From: Candidatus Ryanbacteria bacterium RIFCSPLOWO2_12_FULL_44_26
GTDB lineage: Bacteria > Patescibacteriota > Minisyncoccia > Ryanbacterales > HO2-45-13
Assembly: GCA_001821765.1 (NCBI GenBank)
Contig: MHOA01000001.1
Location: 174,078-238,077 of the forward strand
Length of the DNA: 64,000 bases
Direction: 5' to 3'
Shown one piece after another: positions 3,509-35,438 of the stretch; positions within the stretch are counted from its first letter, which is position 1; every line of letters begins with the position of its first letter. Under the pieces are notes generated by a model, which made no database searches, had not been told where the DNA came from, and saw only the letters and a program-made list of their open reading frames with translations. Both the position numbers and the translations under genes were made by a program.

Positions 3509-3632
3509 CAGCCACATTGTATGAATCGGAAAGGTTGCCTCGCGGCTTCGCCGCTCGGCATTGAATTTGGCGAGGATTTGCCAGTCATTTTTGAACGAAA
3601 CCGAAACCGCTCGCTCCGCGAGCTGGGGGTTC
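3509..3632. repeat. inverted repeat, left copy (124 bp; sense copy of tRNA-Gln last 6 nt CAGCCA plus 118 bp of its 3' flank)
   Basis: The reverse complement of 5080..5203 matches 3509..3632 at 122/124 positions (mismatch aatttggcg vs aattcagcg). This explains the shared peptide '[40 protein letters not shown]' in spurious ORFs 3458..3763(-) and 4952..5260(+). Confidence 0.85.
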
Positions 3633-3729: not shown

Positions 3730-5019
3730 ATGAGCAAATTCTTTCTCTACGCAAGAAAATCAACCGACGAGCCGGATAGGCAAATTTTGAGTATTGAGGC
3801 GCAAATAACCGAATTGCGAGAGTTTGGTGAGCGAGAGCATTTGGAGATCGTGCAGGAGTTTGTGGAGAGCCAGACAGCTAAAGAGCCGGGGCGACCCGTT
3901 TTCAATCAAATGCTCTCGCTCATAGAGAAAGAATTTGCTCAAGGAATTTTGGCGTGGCATCCCGACAGATTAGCGAGAAATAGCGTGGACGGCGGCAGAA
4001 TAATTTACTTGATCGATACCACCAAAATTCGTGAGTTGAAATTCCCTACCTTTTGGTTCGATGCCACGCCACAAGGAAAATTCATGTTGAATATCGCTTT
4101 TGGGCAATCCAAATACTACATTGATAATCTTTCAGAGAATGTGAAAAGAGGGTTGCGTCAAAAAGTGAGACGAGGCGAATATCCGGGCGTGGCTCCCACC
4201 GGATACCTGAACGACAAAGTGAATCACAAAATGGTGAAAGACCCCGAACGCTATCGCCTCGTCCAAAAACTTTTTGAATTGTACGCAACCAAAAATTATT
4301 CTCTGAAAGATTTACGAAATGAAATTACTGAAATTGGCTTGGTGAGCCGGAACGGAAAGCGGCTAACTGTTTCCAATATCCAAATGATTTTACGCAATCC
4401 GTTCTACTACGGCGCGTTTAAGTTCAACGGCGAGTTATATGAAGGCAAGCACGAGCCAGCGATAGCAAAGAAACTTTTTGATAAAGTCCAAGAAGTTATG
4501 TCGGAAAAATCTCGTCCCAAGAAGCGAGGCGAGAAGACATACATTTTTCGCGGATTATTGAAATGTGGAGAGTGTGGTTGCGCTATTACCGCCGAGACGC
4601 AAAAAGGACATTCGTATTATCGCTGTACCAAAAAGAAAAATGTTTGCTCGCAACCCTACATCCGCGAAGAAAATCTCGCCTCGCAGATTTCCGACATACT
4701 TCAAAAAGTTTATTTGCCGGAAGATTGGGCGGACAATATGCTCGCGCAATTAGAAACAGACGAAGCGAGCACCGCCCAATCTGATGCCCTTTTCGCTCAA
4801 AATCTAAAAAACGAGGTTAAGGCGTGCGAGGGGAAGCTAGACATGCTTTTAGACGCTCATTTGGAAAAGACCATTACCAGCGAGGAATATATTGCCAAGA
4901 AAAACAAGATCCTCGCACGCAAGATTGATATTGAGCAGAAATTGAAAGATTTTGAGCGGAAAGGGCGATCGCTGGCTCGAACGGACGAGAAATCTCATTT
5001 TAGCCGCTCACCAAGCTAA
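3730..5019 (+). CDS. large serine recombinase (resolvase/integrase family)
   Basis: 429 aa. N-terminal resolvase catalytic motif 'FLYARKST' with the Ser nucleophile, then '[13 protein letters not shown]'. A recombinase domain is followed by a Cys cluster '[22 protein letters not shown]', the large-serine-recombinase zinc ribbon, and a coiled-coil C-terminus. Confidence 0.85.
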
Positions 5020-5079: not shown

Positions 5080-5203
5080 GAACCCCCAGCTCGCGGAGCG
5101 AGCGGTTTCGGTTTCGTTCAAAAATGACTGGCAAATCCTCGCTGAATTCAATGCCGAGCGGCGAAGCCGCGAGGCAACCTTTCCGATTCATACAATGTGG
5201 CTG
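5080..5203. repeat. inverted repeat, right copy (overlaps tRNA-Gln 3' end by 6 nt)
   Basis: See the left copy at 3509..3632. Confidence 0.85.
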
Positions 5204-5271
5204 GGGAGCAGGGATTCGAACCCCGATACTCGCCTCCAAAGGGCGATGTCCTACCATTAGACGACTCCCCA
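5198..5271 (-). tRNA. tRNA-Gln (anticodon TTG), CCA encoded
   Basis: Minus-strand sequence TGGGGAGTCGTCTAATGGTAGGACATCGCCCTTTGGAGGCGAGTATCGGGGTTCGAATCCCTGCTCCCCAGCCA. It has a 7-bp acceptor stem, anticodon stem TCGCC/GGCGA with loop CTTTGGA, and T-loop TTCGAAT. The ends are typical of bacterial tRNA-Gln (TGGGG....CCCCAGCCA). Confidence 0.85.
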
Positions 5272-7753: not shown

Positions 7754-10207
7754 TTATCCGAATTTTTCCTGCCGGCGGGCAATCTCCGTTTCTACTTCTT
7801 CTCGCAATCTTCCGTACTTCAATCTTGATAAGTCCCTTACTGCCTCGCACACCGCTTTATTGCTGGCGGCGGGCGAATACGATTCTATATTAAACGGGCG
7901 CGTTGTCTTCCCATTAATCAGCAGCCGTATGTATGCGTGAAAATTATCTATATTTAAAAGGTCTCCTGCGGTAAAAACCGGCGCAAACTGTTTTTGCAAT
8001 AGTTCCGTATCATCAACTCCAACACGGAATGAAACAATCGTTCCAACATTTCCGAATACTGCATCTCTAATTTCTTTTGAAAGCTGGCCGATAAACTGGT
8101 GGGCCATAACAAGGTTTAAGCGGTATTTCCTTGCTTCTGAAAGAATTGTTGCAATGGATTTCGTGGTGACATTCTGAAATTCATCAATATAAAGATAAAA
8201 GTCAGGCCTTTTGCTTTCCTCAATATCAACGCGCGAGAGCGCCGCCATAAGCACCTTTCCTATGATGATAAGTCCCAGAAGGTATGAATTGAGTTCTCCG
8301 AGTCGTCCTTTGGAAAGGTTTATCAAAAGAATCTTTTTATTGTCCATAATTTCCCGAAGGCGAAACGAGCTTTTCTCCTGCGCTATGATCGGCCGCATAA
8401 TCTCATTGGCGAGAAAGGTATCAAATTTTGACGTAATATACGGCACCATATTTTGCAGAGACGCTTCGCCTCCGGCTTTCTCCGCTATCTGCTTCCAAAA
8501 CATTTTTACGACTAGATTGGAACTTCTGGAAATCTTAAACTGACGATAGTCTGAATCAACCATCACTCTTGAAATCTCAAGAAGCGTGTTTCCTGATGAC
8601 GGATCGTCCATCACCAAAAGCGTGGCATTTCGAAAATACTGCTCAAACATCGGCCCCCCGGCAACGGACATATCATAAAGTTTGTTAAAAATTTCAAGCA
8701 GTTCGTTTACAATAAACGTCTTTTGCTCCGGGTAGCGGCCATCATATTCCAGAAAATTCAACCCCATGGGACGTTCAATATCGGCCGGGTCAAAATATAC
8801 CACATCTTCAACGCGCTCTTTCGGAATAAGGCCTAAAATGTCTCTTACATCATCTCCGTGGGGATCAAGAAAACACACTCCCCTTCCTTTTTCTATATCC
8901 TCCGCAATCATGTTTTTTATAAGTGTTGTCTTTCCGGTACCGGTCTGGCCAACAATATACATGTGCCGCCTTCGGTCATCTGGAGTAATGTATACCGGCA
9001 CTTCTTCTCCCTTAAACACGCTCTTACCGATTAAAAGACCTGCTTTGGGCAGATTTGCCGGAGGAGGCGCCTCGCGGGACGTTAACATTTGGAGTCTCGG
9101 GGCTTCGGAACCCGCATAAGGAAAACGAAACACTGATGCCAGTTCGTCGGTCGTAAGGTACATGCGGGCAAGCGGATTAAATATACGAAATGAAAAGTTA
9201 TATACCGCCCGTTCCAACGCCCGTCCTTCAAGCGGCATCGCTTTAAAACTGTTGCCTTGGGGTTCAGTAAACTGCAAAAACGCCGCCTCAAGTTCCCGTA
9301 AAATTCTTGAAGCGTCATCTTCGTTAGCAGAAGAAGCCAAAAGGCGTATATTCACATCAAAACCGGTACGCGACGCTTTCTCTGTTATGAGTCTTGCCAC
9401 TTCTTCATCTCCTTGTTTTATCTCTTGGCGTGCCGTTCCGCCGCCGCCTGAACTGCCGGACGGCGCAAATCCCAACATTGCCATCGCTGCAACAAGCCAT
9501 GGATGCAGTTTTTTGGACGTTGCCAGCGCTTCTTTGATGTTTTTTCCCTCACGCACCGCTTTCGCTGCTTTTTTCCCTGCGTCATTGAGCGATCCGCTGG
9601 TAGGGCGCATTAATATTTGTATTGCCGCGCCCTCGCCTTTCTCGTTTAACTTTGCAAAAGCGCCGGCGATCACAGCAAACGGATCATGACCAATGCGTTC
9701 ATATGTATGAATCGGGAGAAGCGCATCGCGCTCAAGCACGAGATGTGAGGCCTTTGTGATACCCTCCGCGTTGAACATATTGTAATCTTCAGCTGGCTCC
9801 ACGCGGCTGTCTGGGAACATCGAATGCGTCAATTTTTGAAATGTAGAAGCATAAAAATTCGGAATCGCTGCATAAAGAACTGTTTCACCACCGGTTTCCG
9901 GAAGCGCAATTTCAAAAGATACTACCGGCTGTCCGTAGAACGCTGCCTTTCGTTTCGTCCGTTTTAACCCCAGAAAACCGGCATACATCTGCTCCATGGT
10001 GAGGAAAAGTTTCTTGGAGTTGTCTTGCTGTCCTTCTCGCTCTGCTCCCATATCTTGAGGAAGCAGAATTCTAAAAAGCCGTAAATGCAGCGAAGAAGAA
10101 ACGTCTCTAAATTGCCTCTCCCTCAATACAAAATACCGGATAAGAACGGCCACAACGATACTTGCGGCTGTTATAACATAAAACGTATTTAACAATAGCG
10201 AGGCCAT
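7754..10207 (-). CDS. VirD4/TraD/TraG-like (type IV coupling protein-like) membrane-anchored ATPase
   Basis: 817 aa with an N-terminal TM. Walker A 'IVGQTGTGKTT'. The C-terminal block 'FYLYIDEFQNV...LSEARKYRLNLVMAHQFIGQL...VFGNVGTIVSFRVG' has DExx Walker B plus the TraD/TraG-type 'AHQ' region. A paralog lies at 62439..>64000. Confidence 0.7.
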   Translation of the reverse strand: MASLLLNTFYVITAASIVVAVLIRYFVLRERQFRDVSSSLHLRLFRILLPQDMGAEREGQQDNSKKLFLTMEQMYAGFLGLKRTKRKAAFYGQPVVSFEIALPETGGETVLYAAIPNFYASTFQKLTHSMFPDSRVEPAEDYNMFNAEGITKASHLVLERDALLPIHTYERIGHDPFAVIAGAFAKLNEKGEGAAIQILMRPTSGSLNDAGKKAAKAVREGKNIKEALATSKKLHPWLVAAMAMLGFAPSGSSGGGGTARQEIKQGDEEVARLITEKASRTGFDVNIRLLASSANEDDASRILRELEAAFLQFTEPQGNSFKAMPLEGRALERAVYNFSFRIFNPLARMYLTTDELASVFRFPYAGSEAPRLQMLTSREAPPPANLPKAGLLIGKSVFKGEEVPVYITPDDRRRHMYIVGQTGTGKTTLIKNMIAEDIEKGRGVCFLDPHGDDVRDILGLIPKERVEDVVYFDPADIERPMGLNFLEYDGRYPEQKTFIVNELLEIFNKLYDMSVAGGPMFEQYFRNATLLVMDDPSSGNTLLEISRVMVDSDYRQFKISRSSNLVVKMFWKQIAEKAGGEASLQNMVPYITSKFDTFLANEIMRPIIAQEKSSFRLREIMDNKKILLINLSKGRLGELNSYLLGLIIIGKVLMAALSRVDIEESKRPDFYLYIDEFQNVTTKSIATILSEARKYRLNLVMAHQFIGQLSKEIRDAVFGNVGTIVSFRVGVDDTELLQKQFAPVFTAGDLLNIDNFHAYIRLLINGKTTRPFNIESYSPAASNKAVCEAVRDLSRLKYGRLREEVETEIARRQEKFG

Positions 10208-21976: not shown

Positions 21977-22738
21977 ATGGAGTTTGCTATTGCCGCATTC
22001 ATTGCCGGACTGTTCACATTTCTTGCCCCTTGTACCCTTCCGCTGGTACCGGGATACCTGGGATTTATCAGCGGAACGTCCGTTGAAGACCTTAAAAACC
22101 CTCTCAAAGCGAAACGTGCGAGGTGGAATATTCTCATCAATGGCCTGTTTTTTATCACGGGCTTTAGCGTTGTATTTATCATATTCGGCACACTTGCAGG
22201 CTTTTTTGGCGCTGCACTTGTAAGTTACAGACTTTGGCTTACGCGAATAGGAGGTATTTTTGTTATTATCTTCGGGCTTTTTATGTTGAATGTTATAAAA
22301 ATACCCTTCCTTGCCAAGGAAAGGCATGTAAGAGTGCCTTCCATTTTTAAACGCGGAAAGCCGCACAATTCTTTCATATTAGGCTCCACGTTTGGATTCG
22401 GATGGACACCGTGTGTGGGCCCGGTTCTCGGCTCCATCCTTGCTCTTGCCGCATCATCTGCTACTGTAGCGAAAGGAGCTTTTCTACTCTCCGTATTTTC
22501 ATTGGGGCTGGCGGTTCCGTTTCTTATCATTGCCGTCGGATACGGTTCTGCCGCGCAAAGGATTGAAAATATAACAAGATATCTTAAACCCATATCCGTT
22601 GTTGGAGGAATTTTTCTTATTTTAATCGGCTTACTGCTTCTCACAGACCGGTTTGTGCTTCTTATCTCATACGGTTTTGGAGTTCTGCGGTTCTTGGGTT
22701 TAGGTATGCTGGAAGAAACGCTTTTTCAGTTCCTCTAA
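21977..22738 (+). CDS. ccdA: cytochrome c-type biogenesis/thiol-disulfide transporter CcdA (DsbD-family)
   Basis: 253 aa, 6-8 TM helices, and the conserved Cys in 'FLAPCTLPLVPGYL' plus 'GWTPCVGPVLG'. Confidence 0.75.
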   Translation: MEFAIAAFIAGLFTFLAPCTLPLVPGYLGFISGTSVEDLKNPLKAKRARWNILINGLFFITGFSVVFIIFGTLAGFFGAALVSYRLWLTRIGGIFVIIFGLFMLNVIKIPFLAKERHVRVPSIFKRGKPHNSFILGSTFGFGWTPCVGPVLGSILALAASSATVAKGAFLLSVFSLGLAVPFLIIAVGYGSAAQRIENITRYLKPISVVGGIFLILIGLLLLTDRFVLLISYGFGVLRFLGLGMLEETLFQFL

Positions 22739-23521: not shown

Positions 23522-24013
23522 TTACTGCATTGGCAAATCACCTGCTTTTGATTGCTTTGGTGGCAACCATCCGCCAATTGATGTTGGTATGCCGCGCAAA
23601 AGCAAAAGAGCAAGCGGCGCCCCCCAATTAGCCCATCTTTCCACAAATTCAAAAATTGAATCGCCGGCAATCGGACGCATAAGAGCAGTCCAAAAACCCC
23701 AGAAGGCCATCCAAAGAAGCGCAAGGCGGACAGGCTTCATCAGAATCAACACAGCCAAAAGGACGTCTATCAAACCAACCAGCCACAAAAACGTAGTCGC
23801 TGTTCCGACATCAGAAATGCCGAAAATAGAAAACCATTCCACCCACGCTTTTCTCCCCTGAAGCGCGAATACGCCGTGTCCGACGAACTCTCCGGCCACA
23901 GAGATACGCAAGACCCATTCTACTTTTCTTACATTATTCATTGTCAAAAACAAAAAATAAACTAATAATAAATAAAGCTTCGACCACACTTTATTATAAG
24001 TAACCCGGAACAT
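23522..24013 (-). CDS. DoxX-like small membrane protein (paralog A)
   Basis: 163 aa. The probable true start is the internal Met 25 ('MNNVRKVEWVLRISVAGEFVGHGVFALQG...'), which aligns with paralog B's N-terminus. Four hydrophobic segments. About 100 residues are near-identical to the 26004..26384 product. Confidence 0.55.
   Translation of the reverse strand: MFRVTYNKVWSKLYLLLVYFLFLTMNNVRKVEWVLRISVAGEFVGHGVFALQGRKAWVEWFSIFGISDVGTATTFLWLVGLIDVLLAVLILMKPVRLALLWMAFWGFWTALMRPIAGDSIFEFVERWANWGAPLALLLLRGIPTSIGGWLPPKQSKAGDLPMQ
23620..23925. repeat. direct repeat copy 1 (~305 bp, 2-3 mismatches to copy at ~26053..26360)
   Basis: The nucleotide runs 'gcaagcggcgccccccaattagcccatctttccacaaattc...acgcaagaccca' are identical apart from ggccatcc/ggtcatcc and cacgctttt/cacgttttt. 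Confidence 0.8.
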
Positions 24014-24128
24014 ATAATAAAGAAAGTGACGAACATGATATAAAAAGCGCCTGCTTGCAAAGGTTGTTCACGCGCCTCCCTTGCAGAAATCAGAGCGGCA
24101 TGTATAGAATGAAACTACGCGTTTATAG

Positions 24129-25196
24129 TTGGTTATCTTTAAAAAATTAATACATTATTTACCATATATGGCTTATCTTATATTTTCCTTACTGGCGTTT
24201 TTTGTTTTAGCGCACCCGGCGCATGCGCTCGTGGCAGAGCTTAAAATCGTCGATGCTGAAGGCAACGAAAAGAAAAATTTCTCCAAAGATGAAGATGTAT
24301 ACCTGGCCGGAAAGTGTGCGCTTGCGAACGGAAATGAAGTAAAAATATTCATCTCTCGCGATAAAAGTGAATGGACTTCTGATCAAAACCTCAGTGACGT
24401 TTCCGGCGAGATTGAAACGGTAAAAATAAAAGACACAGACCTCCCCATTATTCCTATATGGAAACACCCGCTCAATAACGGATCATATGATGTCATTATA
24501 GACTCAAACGGCAATTTTAAACTTGATTCTTTTGAAAATTGCATTGCTCATGTTGCAACAGCGGGCTTTACCGTTGAATCTCAAGTTGTTTCGCCGTCAA
24601 CCAATCCTCAACCCCAATCAACTCCTTCTCCAGTGTATGTTCCGCCGCTGCCACCTCCTCCGCCCGCGCAAATAACTGTGCAACAGTCCGAACCGCCAAA
24701 ACCGTCAACGATCTTTTCATTGGAAGAGCGAATTGAGGTAAAAAGCCTTTCTAACGTTCGCGCTTCTGCCGGAGGAAGTCTGGTTGGCCAACAACCAGCA
24801 GGCGTTGAAGGAGTTATTGTTGGAGGTCCTGTATACGCAACACTTTTAGGCATCGGGTATTGGTTTTGGAATATTGACTACGACATCGATCCCGATGGCT
24901 GGACAGCAGAAAAAACCTTAAAAATTGCAGAAGTTCCTCCTCCTGAACCAGAATCGGAACCAACACCTCCTCTGCCAACAGAATCAACAGAAGTATTAGA
25001 ACCTCCAGCACAACAAGACGTCGCCCCGTCTATTCAGGATTCAGGCAAAGAAAGTGAACTTGCAGCGGTGTCCGAAAACTCCCCGGTAAATAATATTGAT
25101 GTGCTCGGCGGAATCTGGGGAGCAGGCATTATAGGGCTTGCAATTGTCTTAAGCGCGTGGATTTTAGGAAGAGCCGTGCGAAAACGGGGAGATTAA
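24129..25196 (+). CDS. secreted/cell-surface protein with Pro-rich linkers and C-terminal TM anchor
   Basis: 355 aa. Signal-peptide-like N-terminus ('...LAFFVLAHPAHALVAE'), Pro-rich tracts 'PVYVPPLPPPPPAQ' and 'PPPEPESEPTPPLP', and a C-terminal hydrophobic anchor followed by 'RAVRKRGD'. Confidence 0.5.
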   Translation: MVIFKKLIHYLPYMAYLIFSLLAFFVLAHPAHALVAELKIVDAEGNEKKNFSKDEDVYLAGKCALANGNEVKIFISRDKSEWTSDQNLSDVSGEIETVKIKDTDLPIIPIWKHPLNNGSYDVIIDSNGNFKLDSFENCIAHVATAGFTVESQVVSPSTNPQPQSTPSPVYVPPLPPPPPAQITVQQSEPPKPSTIFSLEERIEVKSLSNVRASAGGSLVGQQPAGVEGVIVGGPVYATLLGIGYWFWNIDYDIDPDGWTAEKTLKIAEVPPPEPESEPTPPLPTESTEVLEPPAQQDVAPSIQDSGKESELAAVSENSPVNNIDVLGGIWGAGIIGLAIVLSAWILGRAVRKRGD

Positions 25197-25543
25197 AAAC
25201 AAAGCATCCAGCCGCCAAATACCGCGGTCTCTTTTTCTTCTGCCATACCCTGACTATATCACTTTTTCCTATGCCGAAAACAATAGCCACTTCCCTGTAC
25301 TGCCACAACTCTGCACTTCTTTCCTTTAGTGTTTATTGCTTTACAGATTTTTTTCTTCATAGATTCATTTTTTATTCTCTTTATGAGTGTTTAAGGTGCG
25401 GATTCCGCTCCTTAAATTTATTATATCTTAACGCATACGCTGTTTGACAACTTCTCATCAGACTATCTGTATGTTCTAGAAACCGATGTTGGTGAGCCGG
25501 AACTGGACTTCGCTTCCATTGGACTTGCTCCTTTCTAGTATTT

Positions 25544-25897
25544 CTACCGGTTGGTTGGGCGGATCGAGAGTTGTAAAACAACATCAAAGTTATCGTCCTT
25601 CGCCATTTTGTTCCGCTTCTCAAAGCTGCACGAGACACAACGATGGAGAATGGTGTATTCTCCGCCATTGAACTCCACGCCCACGGGATCCATCGATCCT
25701 TGACACTGCGCCTTACGGTCGCCGGGATTCATGTCAACGTGTTTGCTCCGCAGACACTGCGGACAGTGATTCGTGTAACCGCTTCCGCGCACAAAGAAAC
25801 CGCACCATTTGCAGATGAAATCTTCCTTGGTACGCTGAAATTTTTTTGAAGTCATCATAGTTTTTACCTCCGTTTTTTGTATGCCGACTAAAACCAA
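25544..25897 (-). CDS. RNHCP-domain zinc-ribbon protein
   Basis: 117 aa. 'CKWCGFFVRGSGYTNHCPQCLRSKHVD....C..C' contains the literal RNHCP motif with four Cys pairs. Confidence 0.55.
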   Translation of the reverse strand: MVLVGIQKTEVKTMMTSKKFQRTKEDFICKWCGFFVRGSGYTNHCPQCLRSKHVDMNPGDRKAQCQGSMDPVGVEFNGGEYTILHRCVSCSFEKRNKMAKDDNFDVVLQLSIRPTNR

Positions 25898-26003
25898 AAA
25901 CGAAAAACTTTTTCCTAAAACATCTTGATTTGAATTATGGTGTCTTTTTAAAAAAAGTCAGAACCCATTTTTTTGATATTTACAGCTGCCGTAAAATTAT
26001 ATA

Positions 26004-26384
26004 TCACCGTAACCAATCACGCCAATGCTTCGGCCATCCGATAAATAAAAGCAATGCAAGCGGCGCCCCCCAATTAGCCCATCTTTCCACAAATTCAAAA
26101 ATTGAATCGCCGGCAATCGGACGCATAAGAGCAGTCCAAAAACCCCAGAAGGTCATCCAAAGAAGCGCAAGGCGGACAGGCTTCATCAGAATCAACACAG
26201 CCAAAAGGACGTCTATCAAACCAACCAGCCACAAAAACGTAGTCGCTGTTCCGACATCAGAAATGCCGAAAATAGAAAACCATTCCACCCACGTTTTTCT
26301 CCCCTGAAGCGCGAATACGCCGTGTCCGACGAACTCTCCGGCCACAGAGATACGCAAGACCCACTCAATAAGTTTTGTGTTCAT
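26004..26384 (-). CDS. DoxX-like small membrane protein (paralog B)
   Basis: 126 aa, near-identical core to paralog A. Confidence 0.55.
   Translation of the reverse strand: MNTKLIEWVLRISVAGEFVGHGVFALQGRKTWVEWFSIFGISDVGTATTFLWLVGLIDVLLAVLILMKPVRLALLWMTFWGFWTALMRPIAGDSIFEFVERWANWGAPLALLLFIGWPKHWRDWLR
26053..26360. repeat. direct repeat copy 2
   Basis: See copy 1. Confidence 0.8.
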
Positions 26385-26404: not shown

Positions 26405-27532
26405 TTATTCGACCTTTTGAAAAATCTCAGGCCGTTCCAGCCCCCCTACAATAAGCTCGCCAACGGCGCCTTTATCAATAGCTCGCGAGAGACTATGGTC
26501 AACCAAAAGATATTTTCCGGGGACTTCAACCCTGAACTCCGTTATCATGGCACCGCCCGGCGGCACAATGGTAGTTTGCACATTTCGATGAGGCGGAGAA
26601 ATAATATCTCCTTCGGGATATAGTTTGTCGAGTATCCCGCCGATGACATGGAAATTCGAAGCAATATGCGACCCAACGCCAAAGAATATACGGATTGTTT
26701 CTCCGACATTTGCCTCGAGCGCATTTTCGCCCGTAAGCGCGCCAACCCGACCGTTGAAGGCAAAATACTCCGGCTGTTCCTGTTGCAGTTTTTCCAAACT
26801 GAATGCTTGATGGCCTTTCTCGCCAACCTTGCCTGCTGTATACCATTCGCCCTGCATGATATAGTATTCGCGGTCAACCTTCGCGAGCCCCTCTTTTGGC
26901 TCAACAAGAATCATTCCGTACATGCCATTTGCGACATGTGTGGGAATGTGAGGGCTTGCGCAATGGTACACATAAATGCCCGGACGCGTCGCATTGAACT
27001 GGAATGCGCGCGTTTCCCCGGATGCGACTTGTGTCAATACCGCTCCGCCGCCGGGGCCTTCAACTGCGTGCAGATCAACGGAGTGTTTGGCGTGGCCCGC
27101 CTCGGCATGCTCGTCCGATCCTTCGGCGTGGTCGCCGTTCGCATAGGCGGGGGGAGCGATTAGAGCATCAACAACAAACGAATGGGAGGATGCTGCGGTA
27201 TGATGATCTCCTTGGCTATGATTCAGGCGAATTTCTACAGTATCTCCTTCTTTCACTCGAATGAATGGCCCGGGTACGGTGCCGTTATAAGTCCAGTATT
27301 CATAAGTTACCCCGGGTGCAAGTTCGGCGATTACTTCTTTAGTTTCAAGTTCCACGACTACTTTTTTGTTTTCTCTCCTTACAATAGGAGACGGTAAATC
27401 ATCGGCGTGTTTGCTGATGTCGCTTACGCTCACCGGCTTTGCCGCCGGGGATATCTCACGCGTAGTTTTATACGCAATCCCAACTCCAATAATAAGAATG
27501 ATAATACCAACAAAAATCCAAACCTTTTTCAT
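26405..27532 (-). CDS. nirK: copper-containing nitrite reductase (NirK), membrane-anchored
   Basis: 375 aa with an N-terminal TM. It has the type-1/type-2 Cu ligand blocks 'HSVDLHAVEGPGGGAVLTQV' and 'GIYVYHCASPHIPTHVANGMYGMILVEP'; the canonical NirK blocks are 'HNIDFHAATGALGGG' and 'YHCAPEGMVPWHVTSGMNG'. It also carries a His-rich insertion. Confidence 0.85.
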   Translation of the reverse strand: MKKVWIFVGIIILIIGVGIAYKTTREISPAAKPVSVSDISKHADDLPSPIVRRENKKVVVELETKEVIAELAPGVTYEYWTYNGTVPGPFIRVKEGDTVEIRLNHSQGDHHTAASSHSFVVDALIAPPAYANGDHAEGSDEHAEAGHAKHSVDLHAVEGPGGGAVLTQVASGETRAFQFNATRPGIYVYHCASPHIPTHVANGMYGMILVEPKEGLAKVDREYYIMQGEWYTAGKVGEKGHQAFSLEKLQQEQPEYFAFNGRVGALTGENALEANVGETIRIFFGVGSHIASNFHVIGGILDKLYPEGDIISPPHRNVQTTIVPPGGAMITEFRVEVPGKYLLVDHSLSRAIDKGAVGELIVGGLERPEIFQKVE

Positions 27533-27551
27533 AGCGATTTATTCTTCCAAA

Positions 27552-27583
27552 GATCGTGGAGAATCCGGCAGGACTCCACGATT
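27552..27583 (-). promoter_or_regulatory. perfect 10-bp inverted repeat (gATCGTGGAG-N12-CTCCACGATc) 20-50 bp upstream of nirK ATG
   Basis: Read directly. It lies between the ArsR-like reading frame's end (27599) and the nirK start (27532). Geometry matches a 12-2-12-type winged-helix operator. Confidence 0.45.
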
Positions 27584-27598
27584 TTCGGATCGGCTATT

Positions 27599-27832
27599 TT
27601 ATAATATACATTGAGTCCGTTCCGCCGCACGGTGACCAACCGTGCCGTGACGGAGAACCGCAAGGTGCTGCGATACATTGGCTTTGGGGAGTTTAAGAGT
27701 CTTCACAAGTTCTTTCACTGCCAGCTCTTTTTACTTGAGTAAATTCAAAATCTCAAGCCGTTTGGGATTAGCGAGTAGTTTATAGATGGTGGCGTTACGC
27801 TCGTACGTTATTTTAGGAAATGATGATTTCAT
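27599..27832 (-). pseudogene. ArsR/SmtB-family HTH regulator interrupted by an in-frame TAA
   Basis: The minus-strand frame reads 'MKSSFPKITYERNATIYKLLANPKRLEILNLLK*KELAVKELVKTLKLPKANVSQHLAVLRHGTVGHRAAERTQCIL*'. The ArsR signatures 'LA(D/N)PxRLxIL.LL' and 'SQxxVSxHLxxLRxxGxV' are both present, on either side of the stop at 27733..27731. Track ORF 27731..28018 is the upstream half with a spurious N-terminal extension. Confidence 0.5.
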
Positions 27833-27935
27833 GGTTCGACGCCGCTCACCATGAATCCTGAGCTTGTCGAATGGATTCATGGTTCGACGCCGCTCACCAT
27901 GAATCCTGAGCTTGTCGAATGGATTCATGGTTTCG
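27828..27935. repeat. 48-bp tandem repeat x2.2, each unit containing the hairpin ttcatggt-N12-accatgaa and an ATG on the minus strand
   Basis: The unit ttcatggttcgacgccgctcaccatgaatcctgagcttgtcgaatgga is repeated at 27828, 27876 and partially at 27924. The most downstream unit supplies the ArsR-like gene's ATG. Confidence 0.8.
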
Positions 27936-29848: not shown

Positions 29849-30274
29849 ATGGGTTTTTTAAAAAAAGTCGGTCCCGAATATATCCTGCGTTACTCTTTGG
29901 GAATAACATATCTTTACTCGGGCTTTGATCTTTTTAGACATCCGACTGCTTGGTATTGGGCCCTGCCTATATGGGTAAAACAACTCATAGCGAGTTTGGT
30001 TGATATTAATTTATATCTAAAACTGCAGGGCATCGCTGAAATTATATTGGCTGTTTTGCTGCTTTCATGGTTTTTGAAACGAGTACTCATTAAATGGATA
30101 GCGCTGATTTCGGCACTGGAACTGGCCGCTATTTTACTGCTCGCGTTTTTGCCGTTTAGCCAAGCCAACTTTTTAATTACTTTTCGCGACATCGGACTTC
30201 TGGGAGCGGCGCTTTCTCTTTTTGTTATTTTATCCAAAGAAACCAAACCATCAAATGGATCAGACATCAACTAA
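29849..30274 (+). CDS. DoxX-family membrane protein
   Basis: 141 aa and 4 TM segments. 'YSLGITYLYSGFDLF' resembles the DoxX N-terminus. Confidence 0.5.
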   Translation: MGFLKKVGPEYILRYSLGITYLYSGFDLFRHPTAWYWALPIWVKQLIASLVDINLYLKLQGIAEIILAVLLLSWFLKRVLIKWIALISALELAAILLLAFLPFSQANFLITFRDIGLLGAALSLFVILSKETKPSNGSDIN

Positions 30275-31325
30275 AACCAAACTGGTTTTTTCGTCTTTAG
30301 TCGCGGGACTGCTTGCTTTTATCATTTTCGGCCTGCTTTGGGCGTTTGTCTTTGGATCCGAAAAACCAGAAGGGTTCGCATGGTATCTTTTTAGCTACGC
30401 CATGGGGCTTACTATGATTGTGCTTCCTTGCACGTTTCCCCTCGCGTTCGTCATAGTTCCTCTTTCTATGGGAAAAGGCGTGGCAAAAGGCCTTGGAATC
30501 GCGCTAGCTTTTGGAATTGGCGTGGCAATAATGTTGAGCATTTACGGTATTGTAGCCGCCTTGGTGGGGCAAGCGGCAATCGGCGCTCTTAACACGCCTT
30601 TGGAAACCGTTAAAAATTGGACATATTTTCTCGCGGGTGTTGCCGCATACCTTTTCGCGCTCGGAGAGCTGGGGATCATCCGCGTACGTTTGCCTTCATA
30701 CAGTGGCGCCGCTCCGGCTTTCATCCAAAAACAGCGCGATTATATCAAAGCGCTTTTGCTGGGGCTTTTTTTAGGAAATATCGGCGTTGGCTGCCCCCAT
30801 CCGGCAACGCCTCTTATTCTGGTGGAGATTGCGCGCGCGGGAGATGTATTTTACGGTTGGTCGCTTTTCTTCGTTCACGCGATCGGCAGAGTGCTGCCGC
30901 TGTTTTTGCTTGCGTTTCTTGGTATCTTAGGAGTTAACGCGCTGTCGTGGCTGGTGGCGCGAAAAGACAAACTGGAGCGGGCAACCGGCTGGGCGATGGT
31001 ATTTGTCGCTGGATTTATTCTGACACTCGGCCTATTTACGCATGATTGGTGGGTAAACTCCGGACAGCACATACTTTTGGAATCGGTAACGCAGGAAGCG
31101 CGGTTTACCGGCATCCTCGCGGAGCGGCTTGAAGTCACAGCGCCTCACACCCACGGCCTGGAGGAAGGATCCGGACTTTTTGGCCTTCCGCTTTGGATGG
31201 GCAATTGGGCTTTGGTCTTGCTCTGGATAACCCCCCTTTGGTGGTATTATTCAAAAAAGCGGAAGGAAGCATCCTCCGAAACCGACGCCTCCGCTGCCAT
31301 AGCAAACGCTTCCAAAACACCATGA
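30255..31325 (+). CDS. CcdA/DsbD-like thiol-disulfide membrane protein with C-terminal extension
   Basis: Track ORF 30222..31325; the likely start is ATG 30255 ('MDQTSTK...'). It has a Cys in 'VLPCTFPLAF' and a second in 'GVGCPHPATP', and about 8 TM helices. Confidence 0.5.
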   Translation: MDQTSTKTKLVFSSLVAGLLAFIIFGLLWAFVFGSEKPEGFAWYLFSYAMGLTMIVLPCTFPLAFVIVPLSMGKGVAKGLGIALAFGIGVAIMLSIYGIVAALVGQAAIGALNTPLETVKNWTYFLAGVAAYLFALGELGIIRVRLPSYSGAAPAFIQKQRDYIKALLLGLFLGNIGVGCPHPATPLILVEIARAGDVFYGWSLFFVHAIGRVLPLFLLAFLGILGVNALSWLVARKDKLERATGWAMVFVAGFILTLGLFTHDWWVNSGQHILLESVTQEARFTGILAERLEVTAPHTHGLEEGSGLFGLPLWMGNWALVLLWITPLWWYYSKKRKEASSETDASAAIANASKTP

Positions 31326-32436: not shown

Positions 32437-32874
32437 ATGAATAAATATTTTATAATTTTAATAATGGGAGCGTTGGTAATATTGGGAGGCATATTTTATA
32501 GATCCTTTTTACTCCCCGAATCGGCAGTGCCAGTCATCAGCGGGAAAACACACGAAATCACCATTACAGCGAAGAAAGACCAATGGAGGTTTGAACCCGA
32601 AATTATTGAAATAAATCGGGGAGACAAAGTTATTGCCACCGTAATAAACGAAGACGAATATGACCACGGCATTGCCATTGATGCTTTCGGAATCTCCCAG
32701 AGAATGCCGGCCAAAAGCACAATTCAATTTGAATTTGTGGCTACACAGGAAGGAGATTTTCCTTTCTACTGTTCGGTGCCTTGCGGAGAAGGCAAAGTTG
32801 ATGGCGTAAAAAGAACGCATTTTGATATGATCAGCAAACTACACGTAAGAAGCATTAATTCATCAACAGAATAA
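32437..32874 (+). CDS. cupredoxin-like (type-1 copper) membrane-anchored protein
   Basis: 145 aa with an N-terminal TM. Candidate ligands are 'DHG' His and '[11 protein letters not shown]...H..M' (Cys-His-Met). Confidence 0.6.
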
Positions 32875-32879
32875 ACAAT

Positions 32880-35438
32880 ATGGCTGCAACTAAATTAGTA
32901 CTTAAGGTAAAAGGAATGCATTGTGCTTCCTGCTCCACGCTTATTGATAAACTTATAGGAAAACAGGAGGGCGTCATTTCTATTAAAACCAATTACGGCT
33001 CTGAAAAAACGGCCGTAACATTTGATGAATCCAAAATTTCGCTAAAGAAAATAGACGAATTAATCAACAAACTCGGCTATGATCTTATCCGTCCCGATGA
33101 AGCCGGCATAAACATTGTTGAGGAAGAAAAGAAAGAAAAGCGCAAAATTGAGGAGTCTAAAAGAAGAGTAATAGCCGCTTTCATATTGGCGTTTCCAATC
33201 ATTGCCTACTACATGCTGATTCATATGTTTAACGTAACGCATGTACATGAGTTCTTTGATTTTTTAAATATAAGCCGCCCGGCGCTTTCAAGCGCAGGTT
33301 TTATCGCTTATGGCTCTTACCTAACTAATTATCTTTTCTGGCTGGTAGCACAGCCGTTAAAACTTCTGGTCGGCATTTTTGTCAATATAGCCAATCCCCC
33401 GTTCCGCATTGACCTTAACTATTTTTACTGGATTTTATCCACCCCCATACAGTTTGTCATCGGCTGGCAATTTTACCGCAATTCGTTTACCGCTATCCGC
33501 GTAGGATCTGCCAATATGGATGTTTTGGTAGCCCTTGGAACTTCGGCAGCTTACTTTTATAGCACTATTGGTTTTCTTTTCTTTAATATTGACCACCCTT
33601 TTTGGGAATCTTCCGCAGCGCTCCTCTTTTTCATTCTGCTTGGGCGTTACTTTGAAGCGGTTTCCAAAGGAAGAGCTTCCGCTGCTATTAAAGAACTGCT
33701 TAAGCTTGAAGCTAAAGAAGCCCATGTGATTAGAAACGACGAAGAAGTTACAGTTCCCATTGACCAAATTCAAAAAGGAGAAATCGTACTGGTTCGTCCG
33801 GGCGAAAAAATACCCGTAGACGGCAAAATTATTGAGGGGAAAACACACATTGATGAAAAAGTAGTAACTGGAGAATCGTTCCCGGTGGGAAAAACGGTGG
33901 GAGACGAAGTAATCGGCGCCACCATAAACCAGGAGGGCTTAATCAAATTTCAAGCCACCAAAGTCGGCAAAGACACTCTGCTCTATCAGATAATCAATAT
34001 GGTAGAGGAAGCGCAGGCATCACGAGCTCCTATCCAAAATCTGGTGGATAAAATAAGTGAATATTTCGTGCCTGCGGTAATAGTGCTTTCCGTATTAGTG
34101 TTCGCCGGCTGGTATTTCGGAGCTGCTCTTCCTTTCAGGGCTGGACTTTTGCGAATGATAGCAGTCTTGGTGATTTCATGTCCTTGTGCTATGGGACTTG
34201 CCACTCCAACTGCCCTCATCGTCGGCATAGGGCGCGCTACCAACTTCGGCATAATTCTCAAAGGGGGAGAAGCGCTGGAGAAAGCCTATAAAATAAATTC
34301 TATCGTTTTTGATAAAACCGGCACTCTTACCATAGGCAAACCGGTAGTAACCGACTTTATGATGGTGTCAGACAAATTTAAAGAAAAAGAGGCGCTTCTC
34401 CTGGCCGCTTCTTTGGAAAAAGGTTCGGAACATCCTTTGGCAAAAGCCGTCGTGGAAAAAGGAAAATCAATAGCCACCGGCAAAAATGCATTACAAACGC
34501 CGACTGCATTTGAGGCAGTTTCCGGTTTGGGAATTAAAGGAAAAGTAAACGGCAAATTTATAGCCATAGGAAATCAGGCGTTTATGGATAAGCTCGGAGT
34601 GCCAACAGCGCAGCATGAAATGCTGGTGGAAAAACTGCAAAATGAAGCTAAAACCGTCGTTTTTATGTCCGTAGGAAAAGAGGCGGCGGCTGTTATCGCC
34701 ATGGCGGATACCTTAAAACCCTACGCCAAAGAAACCATTACGGCGCTAAAAGCCATGAGGAAAGAAATAATAATGATTACCGGAGACAACCAAAAAACAG
34801 CCGAAGCCATCGCGCGACAAGTCGGAATAGATCGCGTTATGGCGAAAGTTTTACCGCAGGAAAAAGCGAAAACGGTAAAAAAACTCCAAGAGGAAGGAAA
34901 AAGCGTGGCCATGGTTGGAGACGGCATAAATGATTCACCGGCGCTTGCGCAAGCCGATATTGGCATCGCAATCGGATCAGGCACCGACGTGGCTATAGAA
35001 ACCGGGGAGATAATACTGGTAAAAGATGAACTGAGAGACGTAGTAACAGCCATCCAGCTTTCAGGAAAAACCATAAAAAAAGTGTGGCAAAATCTGTTCT
35101 GGGCTTTTATTTACAATATATTGGCTATACCGATTGCCGGAGGAATTCATCTTCTTATCACACAAGCTTCTTTCGGCATACCTGCGCCTTGGGTATTAGA
35201 CGTAACCAAAAGTCTGGGGTCGGCTTTCGGACAGATTTTCTTTAATTTTTCGCAAGCGACTTTGCGTCCGGAAATTGCCGGCTTTGCCATGGCCTTTAGC
35301 TCCGTTTCAGTAGTAACCAACTCGCTTTTGCTTAGGCGCTACGTTCCGCCCATGGAAAAAATAATTGTCAAAAAGAAACCTTCTGATGAAACTCATTACA
35401 AGTTAAAAAACAACAAAGACAATTATGGAAAAGATTGA
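32880..35438 (+). CDS. copA: copper-translocating P1B-type ATPase
   Basis: 852 aa. N-terminal HMA 'GMHCASCS', TM 'CPC', 'DKTGTLT', 'HP', and '[10 protein letters not shown]'. Confidence 0.92.

Follow-up and report, generated by a model that had tools for sequence, protein, structure and literature searches.

Two DoxX-like genes, here named paralogs A and B, were analysed in a 64,000-nt stretch of the genome of Candidatus Ryanbacteria bacterium RIFCSPLOWO2_12_FULL_44_26 (contig MHOA01000001.1, positions 174,078 to 238,077; hereafter the window, whose numbering is used throughout). The distribution of the differences between the two genes indicates that, very probably, they are long-diverged paralogs (or xenologs) and gene conversion, in itself an ordinary process, has recently made their cores nearly identical. 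The conversion tract itself is real, statistically clear and a known kind of event.

A repeat search and a MAFFT alignment delimited a direct repeat of 311 nt (copy A, 23610-23920; copy B, 26056-26366; both on the minus strand), with copies placed 2446 nt apart and differing at three positions (99% identity); codon comparison was additionally used for copy A. The mismatches are located at offsets +97, +238 and +308 (window positions 23707/26153, 23848/26294 and 23918/26364, respectively). Both ends of the repeat are sharp, with the intergenic flanks at random identity directly beyond them, and no other long direct repeat was found within the 64-kb window. The mismatch at +308 (23918) is a synonymous GAA/GAG difference in a Glu codon at the edge of the tract, so that the effective tract covers about 308 nt (23610-23917) and contains two differences, both of them Ala/Thr. 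At the +97 site (23707, partner 26153) A encodes Ala and B encodes Thr (WMAFW/WMTFW), and at the +238 site (26294, partner 23848) B again encodes Thr and A encodes Ala (GRKTW/GRKAW). The near-identical repeats of about 300 bp reported in the preliminary description were therefore real, and the two to three differences right, with coordinates off by at most about 10 nt.

The same description took the repeat copies to be cores of DoxX-like genes whose N- and C-termini are paralog-specific, and the protein and family alignments bore this out. Paralog A (23522-23941, minus strand; from its open reading frame (ORF) and alignment) encodes a DoxX-like membrane protein of 139 amino acids starting at MNNVRKV, an alternative 163-amino-acid reading from 24013 also being annotated. 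Paralog B (26004-26384, minus strand; from its ORF and the family alignment) encodes a DoxX-like membrane protein of 126 amino acids, and begins 20 nt 3' of nirK on the same strand, in the gene string nirK-B-RNHCP. At the protein level, A and B share 89% identity. In B, the head (MNTKLIEW) and the tail (GWPKHWRDWLR) agree with the family consensus, whereas the head and the tail (RGIPTSIGGWLPPKQSKAGDLPMQ) of A are divergent yet family-like, keeping the invariant residues G116, P118 and W124. The A head, MNNVRKVEW, is akin to family variants such as MNNSKVIEW (pattern MNN.K.EW), and the RGIPTSIGGWL of its tail (pattern G.P.....WL) resembles the tails of the relatives P0073, P0079 and P0088. As both ends of A are family-like, this gene was interpreted as a full-length old copy, and not as an inserted 311-nt fragment.

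The evidence for conversion comes from a comparison of 102 aligned tract codons with 20 aligned flank codons, evaluated by Fisher's exact test. None of the 88 comparable codons in the tract showed a synonymous difference, and only two amino-acid differences were present among its 102 codons. In contrast, all the comparable codons in the flanks (n = 9/9) differed synonymously, together with nine amino-acid differences and a nucleotide identity of 47% over the 20 codons, which made the contrast between tract and flanks highly significant (p = 7e-13). The A/B codons encoding the same residue in the flanks were AAT/AAC for N, GAA/GAG for E, GCT/GCA for A, GGC/GGA for G and CCA/CCG for P, as well as CTT/TTG, TTG/CTT, CTT/TTA and TTG/TTA for L. 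The core DNA of the same gene in 80 other species reached at best 86.7% identity (median 70%), indicating that protein constraint cannot account for the 99% identity between A and B. This step change at synonymous positions points to a conversion tract laid over old paralogs, and not to a young duplication or to the insertion of a fragment. The preliminary description had offered "very recent duplication or gene conversion"; recency and gene conversion hold, while the codon pattern argues against a new duplication.

Under gene conversion, a recent event of non-reciprocal homologous recombination, presumably of the RecA type, would have copied about 308 nt of one gene core onto the other, removing all synonymous divergence within the tract and leaving 6-7 head codons and 13-25 tail codons unaffected. 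The direction was probably from B to A, judging from the sequence of the gene ends, because those of B are canonical for the family and those of A are divergent. The genes for RNHCP and for the surface protein that lie between the paralogs would merely be located there, with no dedicated switch or mobile module involved, and the repeats would be a potential substrate for unequal crossing-over of the interval.

Textbook examples of concerted evolution by gene conversion are tufA/tufB in Salmonella and the rRNA operons. The locus resembles cases of concerted evolution of bacterial paralogs in presenting a discrete near-identical tract within diverged homologous genes of one genome, in the lack of synonymous differences in that tract, and in an apparent exchange of the remaining distinguishing sites. 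It differs from them in that the genes are tiny (126 and 139 amino acids), in direct orientation and 2.4 kb apart, within a reduced genome of the candidate phyla radiation (CPR) in which paralogs are scarce, and in being known from metagenomes alone. Our literature search found no paper on gene conversion in CPR bacteria.

Several observations weigh against this interpretation. No A-type orthologue turned up in other species, whether among the best matches from two database searches or across the 80 genomes, the A-tailed proteins in these same searches coming only from the same population, so that how old A is, where it came from and which way conversion ran are judged from the short flanks. 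Just two internal differences are left, too few to reveal selection on them. The remaining points concern two scaffolds from other Rifle samples (L005 and L006, described below): identical copies at their two variable sites would also be expected from bubble-popping in a collapsed repeat, and these sites lie 141 nt apart, just over k = 141.

The only candidate A orthologue with full-length coverage, P0158, was rejected, as it turned out to be this population's own copy A, shortened internally by 75 nt. A deletion of this kind was observed in one contig only (L097, 8001-8417; GCA_001819935.1), in which copy A lacks 75 nt in frame between GATT microhomologies (window ~23674-23748), so that the third helix is largely lost; this variant may reflect genuine decay, or else a misassembly.

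The two-copy layout was recovered on about 30 contigs from IDBA-UD, MEGAHIT and JGI assemblies, with the same three mismatches in the NCBI, ENA-MEGAHIT, ENA-IDBA and JGI contigs. Four contigs (L001-L004, from ENA MEGAHIT assemblies, NCBI GCA_001821715.1 and JGI 3300025121) were 100% identical to the window over the two-copy region, including these mismatches, and the sole difference observed was one fewer unit of a 48-nt tandem repeat near 27.8 kb in L001. Exact copies of the proteins of the A/B locus were present on 22-25 contigs of up to 260 kb, which makes a repeat created by the assembler very unlikely. The B protein was also 100% identical to one from Candidatus Ryanbacteria RIFCSPLOWO2_02_FULL_44, the source being a Rifle aquifer population.

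A second strain type was represented by L005 and L006, which differ from the window at 2 of 12,420 nt, at positions 23707 and 26294. Both are sites that distinguish the copies, and at each of them the base of the other copy is present, so that both copies of this type encode Ala at +238 (the A allele) and Thr at +97 (the B allele), a haplotype carried by six contigs. Two random single-nucleotide polymorphisms would have a chance of about 2e-7 of both hitting the six positions by which the copies are distinguished. We infer that this strain polymorphism is biological, a view mildly favoured by the fact that a single mixed haplotype, with G at one of the sites and A at the second, recurs across samples. 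From these site swaps in a co-occurring strain type, conversion seems to be ongoing in the population.

If there had been no old paralog, and the gene or a 311-nt piece of it had instead been duplicated very recently and had then diverged or recruited new ends, the near-identity of the cores and the single copy of the gene in all 80 other species would be accounted for. We consider this course improbable, given that the homologous, family-like ends are saturated at synonymous sites (9/9) beside a core without any such difference (0/88), and that a random fragment would not gain an in-frame MN... head and a G.P.....WL tail with the invariant residues. Even less credence was given to an integrative element, in which the 2.1-kb interval would have recombined into a single DoxX-like gene and left the repeats as an att-like duplication. 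A two-gene segment is indeed bracketed by direct repeats, and there is a unit-length contig with identical ends (L087), but no integrase, transposase or excisionase was found in the interval, its GC content is that of the background, and viral contigs yielded no relatives. Moreover, both DoxX-like genes are complete, with the canonical ends together on B and the divergent ends together on A, a pairing opposite to the one predicted by a Campbell-type insertion. The integrative element and the insertion of a fragment were thus rejected on the head/tail pairing and the codon evidence. An assembly artefact, with copies that are truly more different, or a single copy, and a repeat created or homogenised by the assembler, appears equally remote. 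The locus does provoke misassemblies, such as chimeras, loop contigs and the 75-nt deletion variant in L097; nevertheless, the same structure and discriminating bases occur in contigs of up to 260 kb from three pipelines and many samples, every discriminating site lies within 100 nt of unique flank and can be phased by single reads, and assemblers do not render 300 nt uniform when the copies diverge by 10-20%.

The alternative with most in its favour, although still unlikely in our judgement, is an amplifiable and deletable (phase-variable) cassette, in which RecA-mediated unequal crossing-over would recurrently delete or duplicate the surface-protein and RNHCP genes and generate hybrid DoxX-like genes. 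Direct repeats undergo RecA-dependent unequal crossing-over in bacteria, giving tandem amplification or deletion, and here long near-identical direct repeats flank a cargo. The hybrid proteins expected from such an exchange were constructed and looked up as exact sequences in public assemblies, and both the deletion-type and the duplication-type were found. Deletion-type hybrids (B head and A tail; P0138, P0139 and P0140) were present on contigs of 537-890 nt, and L093 and L094 showed the order nirK 3' end, hybrid and A downstream flank, with flanks 100% identical to the window. Duplication-type hybrids (A head and B tail) were present on contigs of 936-2029 nt (P0146 and P0157) and on a 22,211-nt JGI contig (P0141; L092), in which the order was partial B, RNHCP, surface protein, hybrid, RNHCP, surface protein, A, Nudix and onward. 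The haplotypes of L092 and of L093/L094 are each explained by a single crossover between window-type parents. In addition, the two units of L092 are not identical, since the second RNHCP gene carries a private TCC insertion (2935-2955) that adds a Leu, and the first unit contains an N (position 597); the resulting 105-amino-acid protein (P0153) was found on no other contig.

Against the cassette, the flanks of the junction contigs are all 100% identical to the main strain and thus provide no independent marker, and a collapsed repeat yields precisely "through" (deletion-like) and "loop" (duplication-like) contigs, both of which are present as short contigs. A loop contig of unit length (L087; 2508 nt with 62-nt identical ends) was the only match in a metagenome scan with a 40-nt core sequence. 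P0146 would require three switches, and L092 begins within the repeat, contains an N, has a visibly poorer consensus and derives from an old merged assembly. There are also cross-species chimeras joined inside the same gene (L095/L096, P0148 and P0151), the plain layout stands on about 30 long contigs, and the arrangement is not conserved as a unit in other species. The junction contigs have exactly the topology of a collapsed repeat and cannot be told from such artefacts. In comparison with known cases of repeat-mediated amplification or deletion, the locus likewise has 99% identical direct repeats of 311 nt around 2.1 kb and both types of junction on contigs; here, however, the junctions are known from contigs alone, which fit the way assemblers treat collapsed repeats, and the cargo forms neither a conserved nor a selectable unit. 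That a 2.4-kb unit (hybrid DoxX-like gene, RNHCP and surface protein) exists at 0, 1 and 2 copies in the Rifle population as a result of continuing unequal crossing-over, alongside continual conversion, is accordingly doubtful.

As a separate observation, the 8170-nt contig L095 was 99% identical to Azambacteria (L008-like) up to the middle of the core and continued as the Ryanbacteria B tail and RNHCP, and L096 was alike. P0148 and P0151 are cross-species hybrids from the same 90% cluster, joined within the DoxX-like gene, and the longest exact match between the Azambacteria and Ryanbacteria genes is 53 nt. L095 and L096 are chimeras assembled across species, or else recombinants between lineages.

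The content of the interval was as the preliminary description had it, according to the ORFs and Pfam: a Pro-rich anchored surface protein and an RNHCP zinc-ribbon protein. The former (24168-25196, plus strand; assigned from its ORF and sequence features) is a secreted protein of 342 amino acids from M14, or alternatively of 355 amino acids from a TTG at 24129, with a signal peptide ending AHA|L, Pro-rich linkers, and a C-terminal transmembrane helix followed by an RKRGD tail, by which it is membrane-anchored; it had no match in Pfam or NCBIfam. The RNHCP protein (25544-25858, or to 25897, minus strand) has 104 amino acids and matched PF12647 with 100.5 bits against a threshold of 24 (E 5e-29); its gene has a strong GGAGG ribosome-binding site and lies 3' of B on the same strand. 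No NCBIfam model matched A, B, RNHCP or the surface protein, and no paper on RNHCP biology was found in the literature.

A scan of a genome collection retrieved 264 relatives of the DoxX-like gene, and the best 80 loci, from 80 CPR species, were inspected over ±8 kb. These species span Parcubacteria, Microgenomates, Peribacteria and others, and the gene was single-copy within ±8 kb in all of them (80/80), indicating that the A/B pair is lineage-specific. At none of the 80 loci was the DoxX-like gene accompanied by RNHCP, the surface protein or another copy of itself. The 16 homologues of the surface protein (34-43% identity) were located in unrelated contexts, beside RecG/patatin, an M23 peptidase or an MFS transporter. 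The interval between 23.9 and 26.0 kb contained no integrase, transposase, excisionase or other recombinase by ORFs, Pfam and NCBIfam, and its GC content (0.40-0.48) was similar to the background of about 0.42-0.45. A scan of viral contigs for the DoxX-like family gave no match, a promoter and terminator scan found no excess over shuffled sequences (7 vs 7.8 and 8 vs 7.2), and Rfam detected tRNA-Ala only between 21 and 29 kb (E <= 0.1). The suggestion of a "phase-variable or recently acquired surface module" is not supported, in view of the unrelated contexts of the homologues, the lack of pairing at the 80 loci, the lack of a recombinase and the background GC, as well as the same layout on about 30 contigs from three assembly sources. 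The surface-protein and RNHCP genes are bystanders in the interval; the reading as a phase-variable or acquired cassette is unsupported by the comparative data, and the assembly-level evidence on it is ambiguous.

The family to which A and B belong was compared with Pfam DoxX (PF07681): B scored 20.3 bits, below the gathering threshold of 23.6, and A gave no match, while the model matched 59 of 67 relatives at E <= 0.01 (best 6.9e-6). An AlphaFold2 model built on the family alignment (pLDDT 91.9) consisted of long helices at 3-27, 44-67, 71-90 and 95-115 and a short helix at 30-39. Its sole notable match in the PDB was NACHO/TMEM35A (9h9e_B; probability 1.00, TM-scores 0.67/0.64, with a weak E-value of 0.042), which is classed as a DoxX-type protein. 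We therefore regard the family as a distant branch of the DoxX superfamily and not as a certified member. It shares with the DoxX family (PF07681; NACHO/TMEM35A) the nature of a small helical membrane protein, and is set apart from it as a distinct CPR branch, unusually conserved (64-87% identity across the radiation) and following a P-type ATPase.

Of 75 genes immediately upstream of the DoxX-like gene, 23-26 encode a heavy-metal P-type ATPase (E1-E2_ATPase plus HMBD or HMA domains) and are read in the same direction. An ATPase was present within 8 kb in 42 of the 80 loci, always co-oriented and upstream in 38 of them, and multicopper oxidases or NirK adjoined the DoxX-like gene in a few. The DoxX-like protein is 64-87% identical across CPR, compared with 35-50% identity of these ATPases to the CopA of the window. 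The protein is a candidate for copper handling, being highly conserved and, in about half the species, encoded just 3' of a heavy-metal ATPase. A copper-related context is common to the CPR family and two DoxX-related genes for which published work hints at a link to copper or gold stress operons, namely GigT in the gig operon of Cupriavidus metallidurans (PMC10304878) and a Cu-induced DoxX gene in Caulobacter (PMC8224329). A copper-handling role is a reasonable inference from sequence and gene context, the context suggesting copper rather than redox or quinone chemistry, and the family may be an undescribed accessory partner of copper-type P-type ATPases.

The window itself forms a copper/redox neighbourhood, comprising CcdA/DsbD (21977-22738), NirK, a second DsbD-like gene (30222-31325), a cupredoxin (32437-32874) and CopA (32880-35438). 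NirK (26405-27532, minus strand) is a copper-containing nitrite reductase of 375 amino acids, identified by TIGR02376 with 321.7 bits against a cut-off of 296.3. Its gene lies in a locally GC-rich stretch (0.50-0.54 vs about 0.43), and the protein has a His-rich insertion. A NirK 86% identical to that of the window was found in L066 (6847-7974), beside a DoxX-like gene that is only 69% identical, which suggests, from sequence identity, that nirK may move horizontally among CPR bacteria.

Upstream of nirK, a gene for an ArsR/SmtB-type regulator (27533-27930, minus strand) looks broken, with an in-frame TAA after ...LEILNLLK and then a frameshift before ...VYYKIADPKIVESCRILHDLW. The 48-nt tandem repeat (27823-27918) is located in the 5' part of this gene, each unit holding a hairpin with a 9-bp stem (ATTCATGGT...ACCATGAAT); two copies are present in the window and in most assemblies and one in L001, indicating that the copy number varies. 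In L065, L066, L070, L071 and L076 as well, short ArsR-like matches are found ahead of genes for multicopper oxidases or NirK. Elsewhere in the window, 124-nt inverted repeats (3509-3632 and 5080-5203; 98% complementary) surround the ORF of a large serine recombinase (3730-5019) with Resolvase, Recombinase and Zn_ribbon_recom domains; the right arm abuts a tRNA-Gln (5198-5271), and the segment may be invertible or mobile. An 817-aa protein (7754-10207, minus strand) carries HerA/DUF87 and TrwB/VirD4-type coupling-protein domains, characteristic of type IV secretion-like machinery.

The A/B pair provides a clean and quantifiable case of concerted evolution in a CPR genome. It is also a warning about misassembly, since in public metagenome assemblies a conserved intragenomic repeat of 311 nt gives rise to through and loop contigs as well as to chimeras across species, and protein databases now contain the hybrid proteins that derive from such contigs. 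If the rearrangements were true, active homologous recombination would shape gene content in natural CPR populations, and a unit present at zero, one and two copies would let the recombination-driven dynamics of copy number and mosaic genes be seen directly, as is rarely possible, in an uncultured CPR bacterium with a reduced genome. Possibly more useful is the side lead that the locus provided, the 126-amino-acid DoxX-like protein, as a concrete candidate for copper handling in CPR bacteria.

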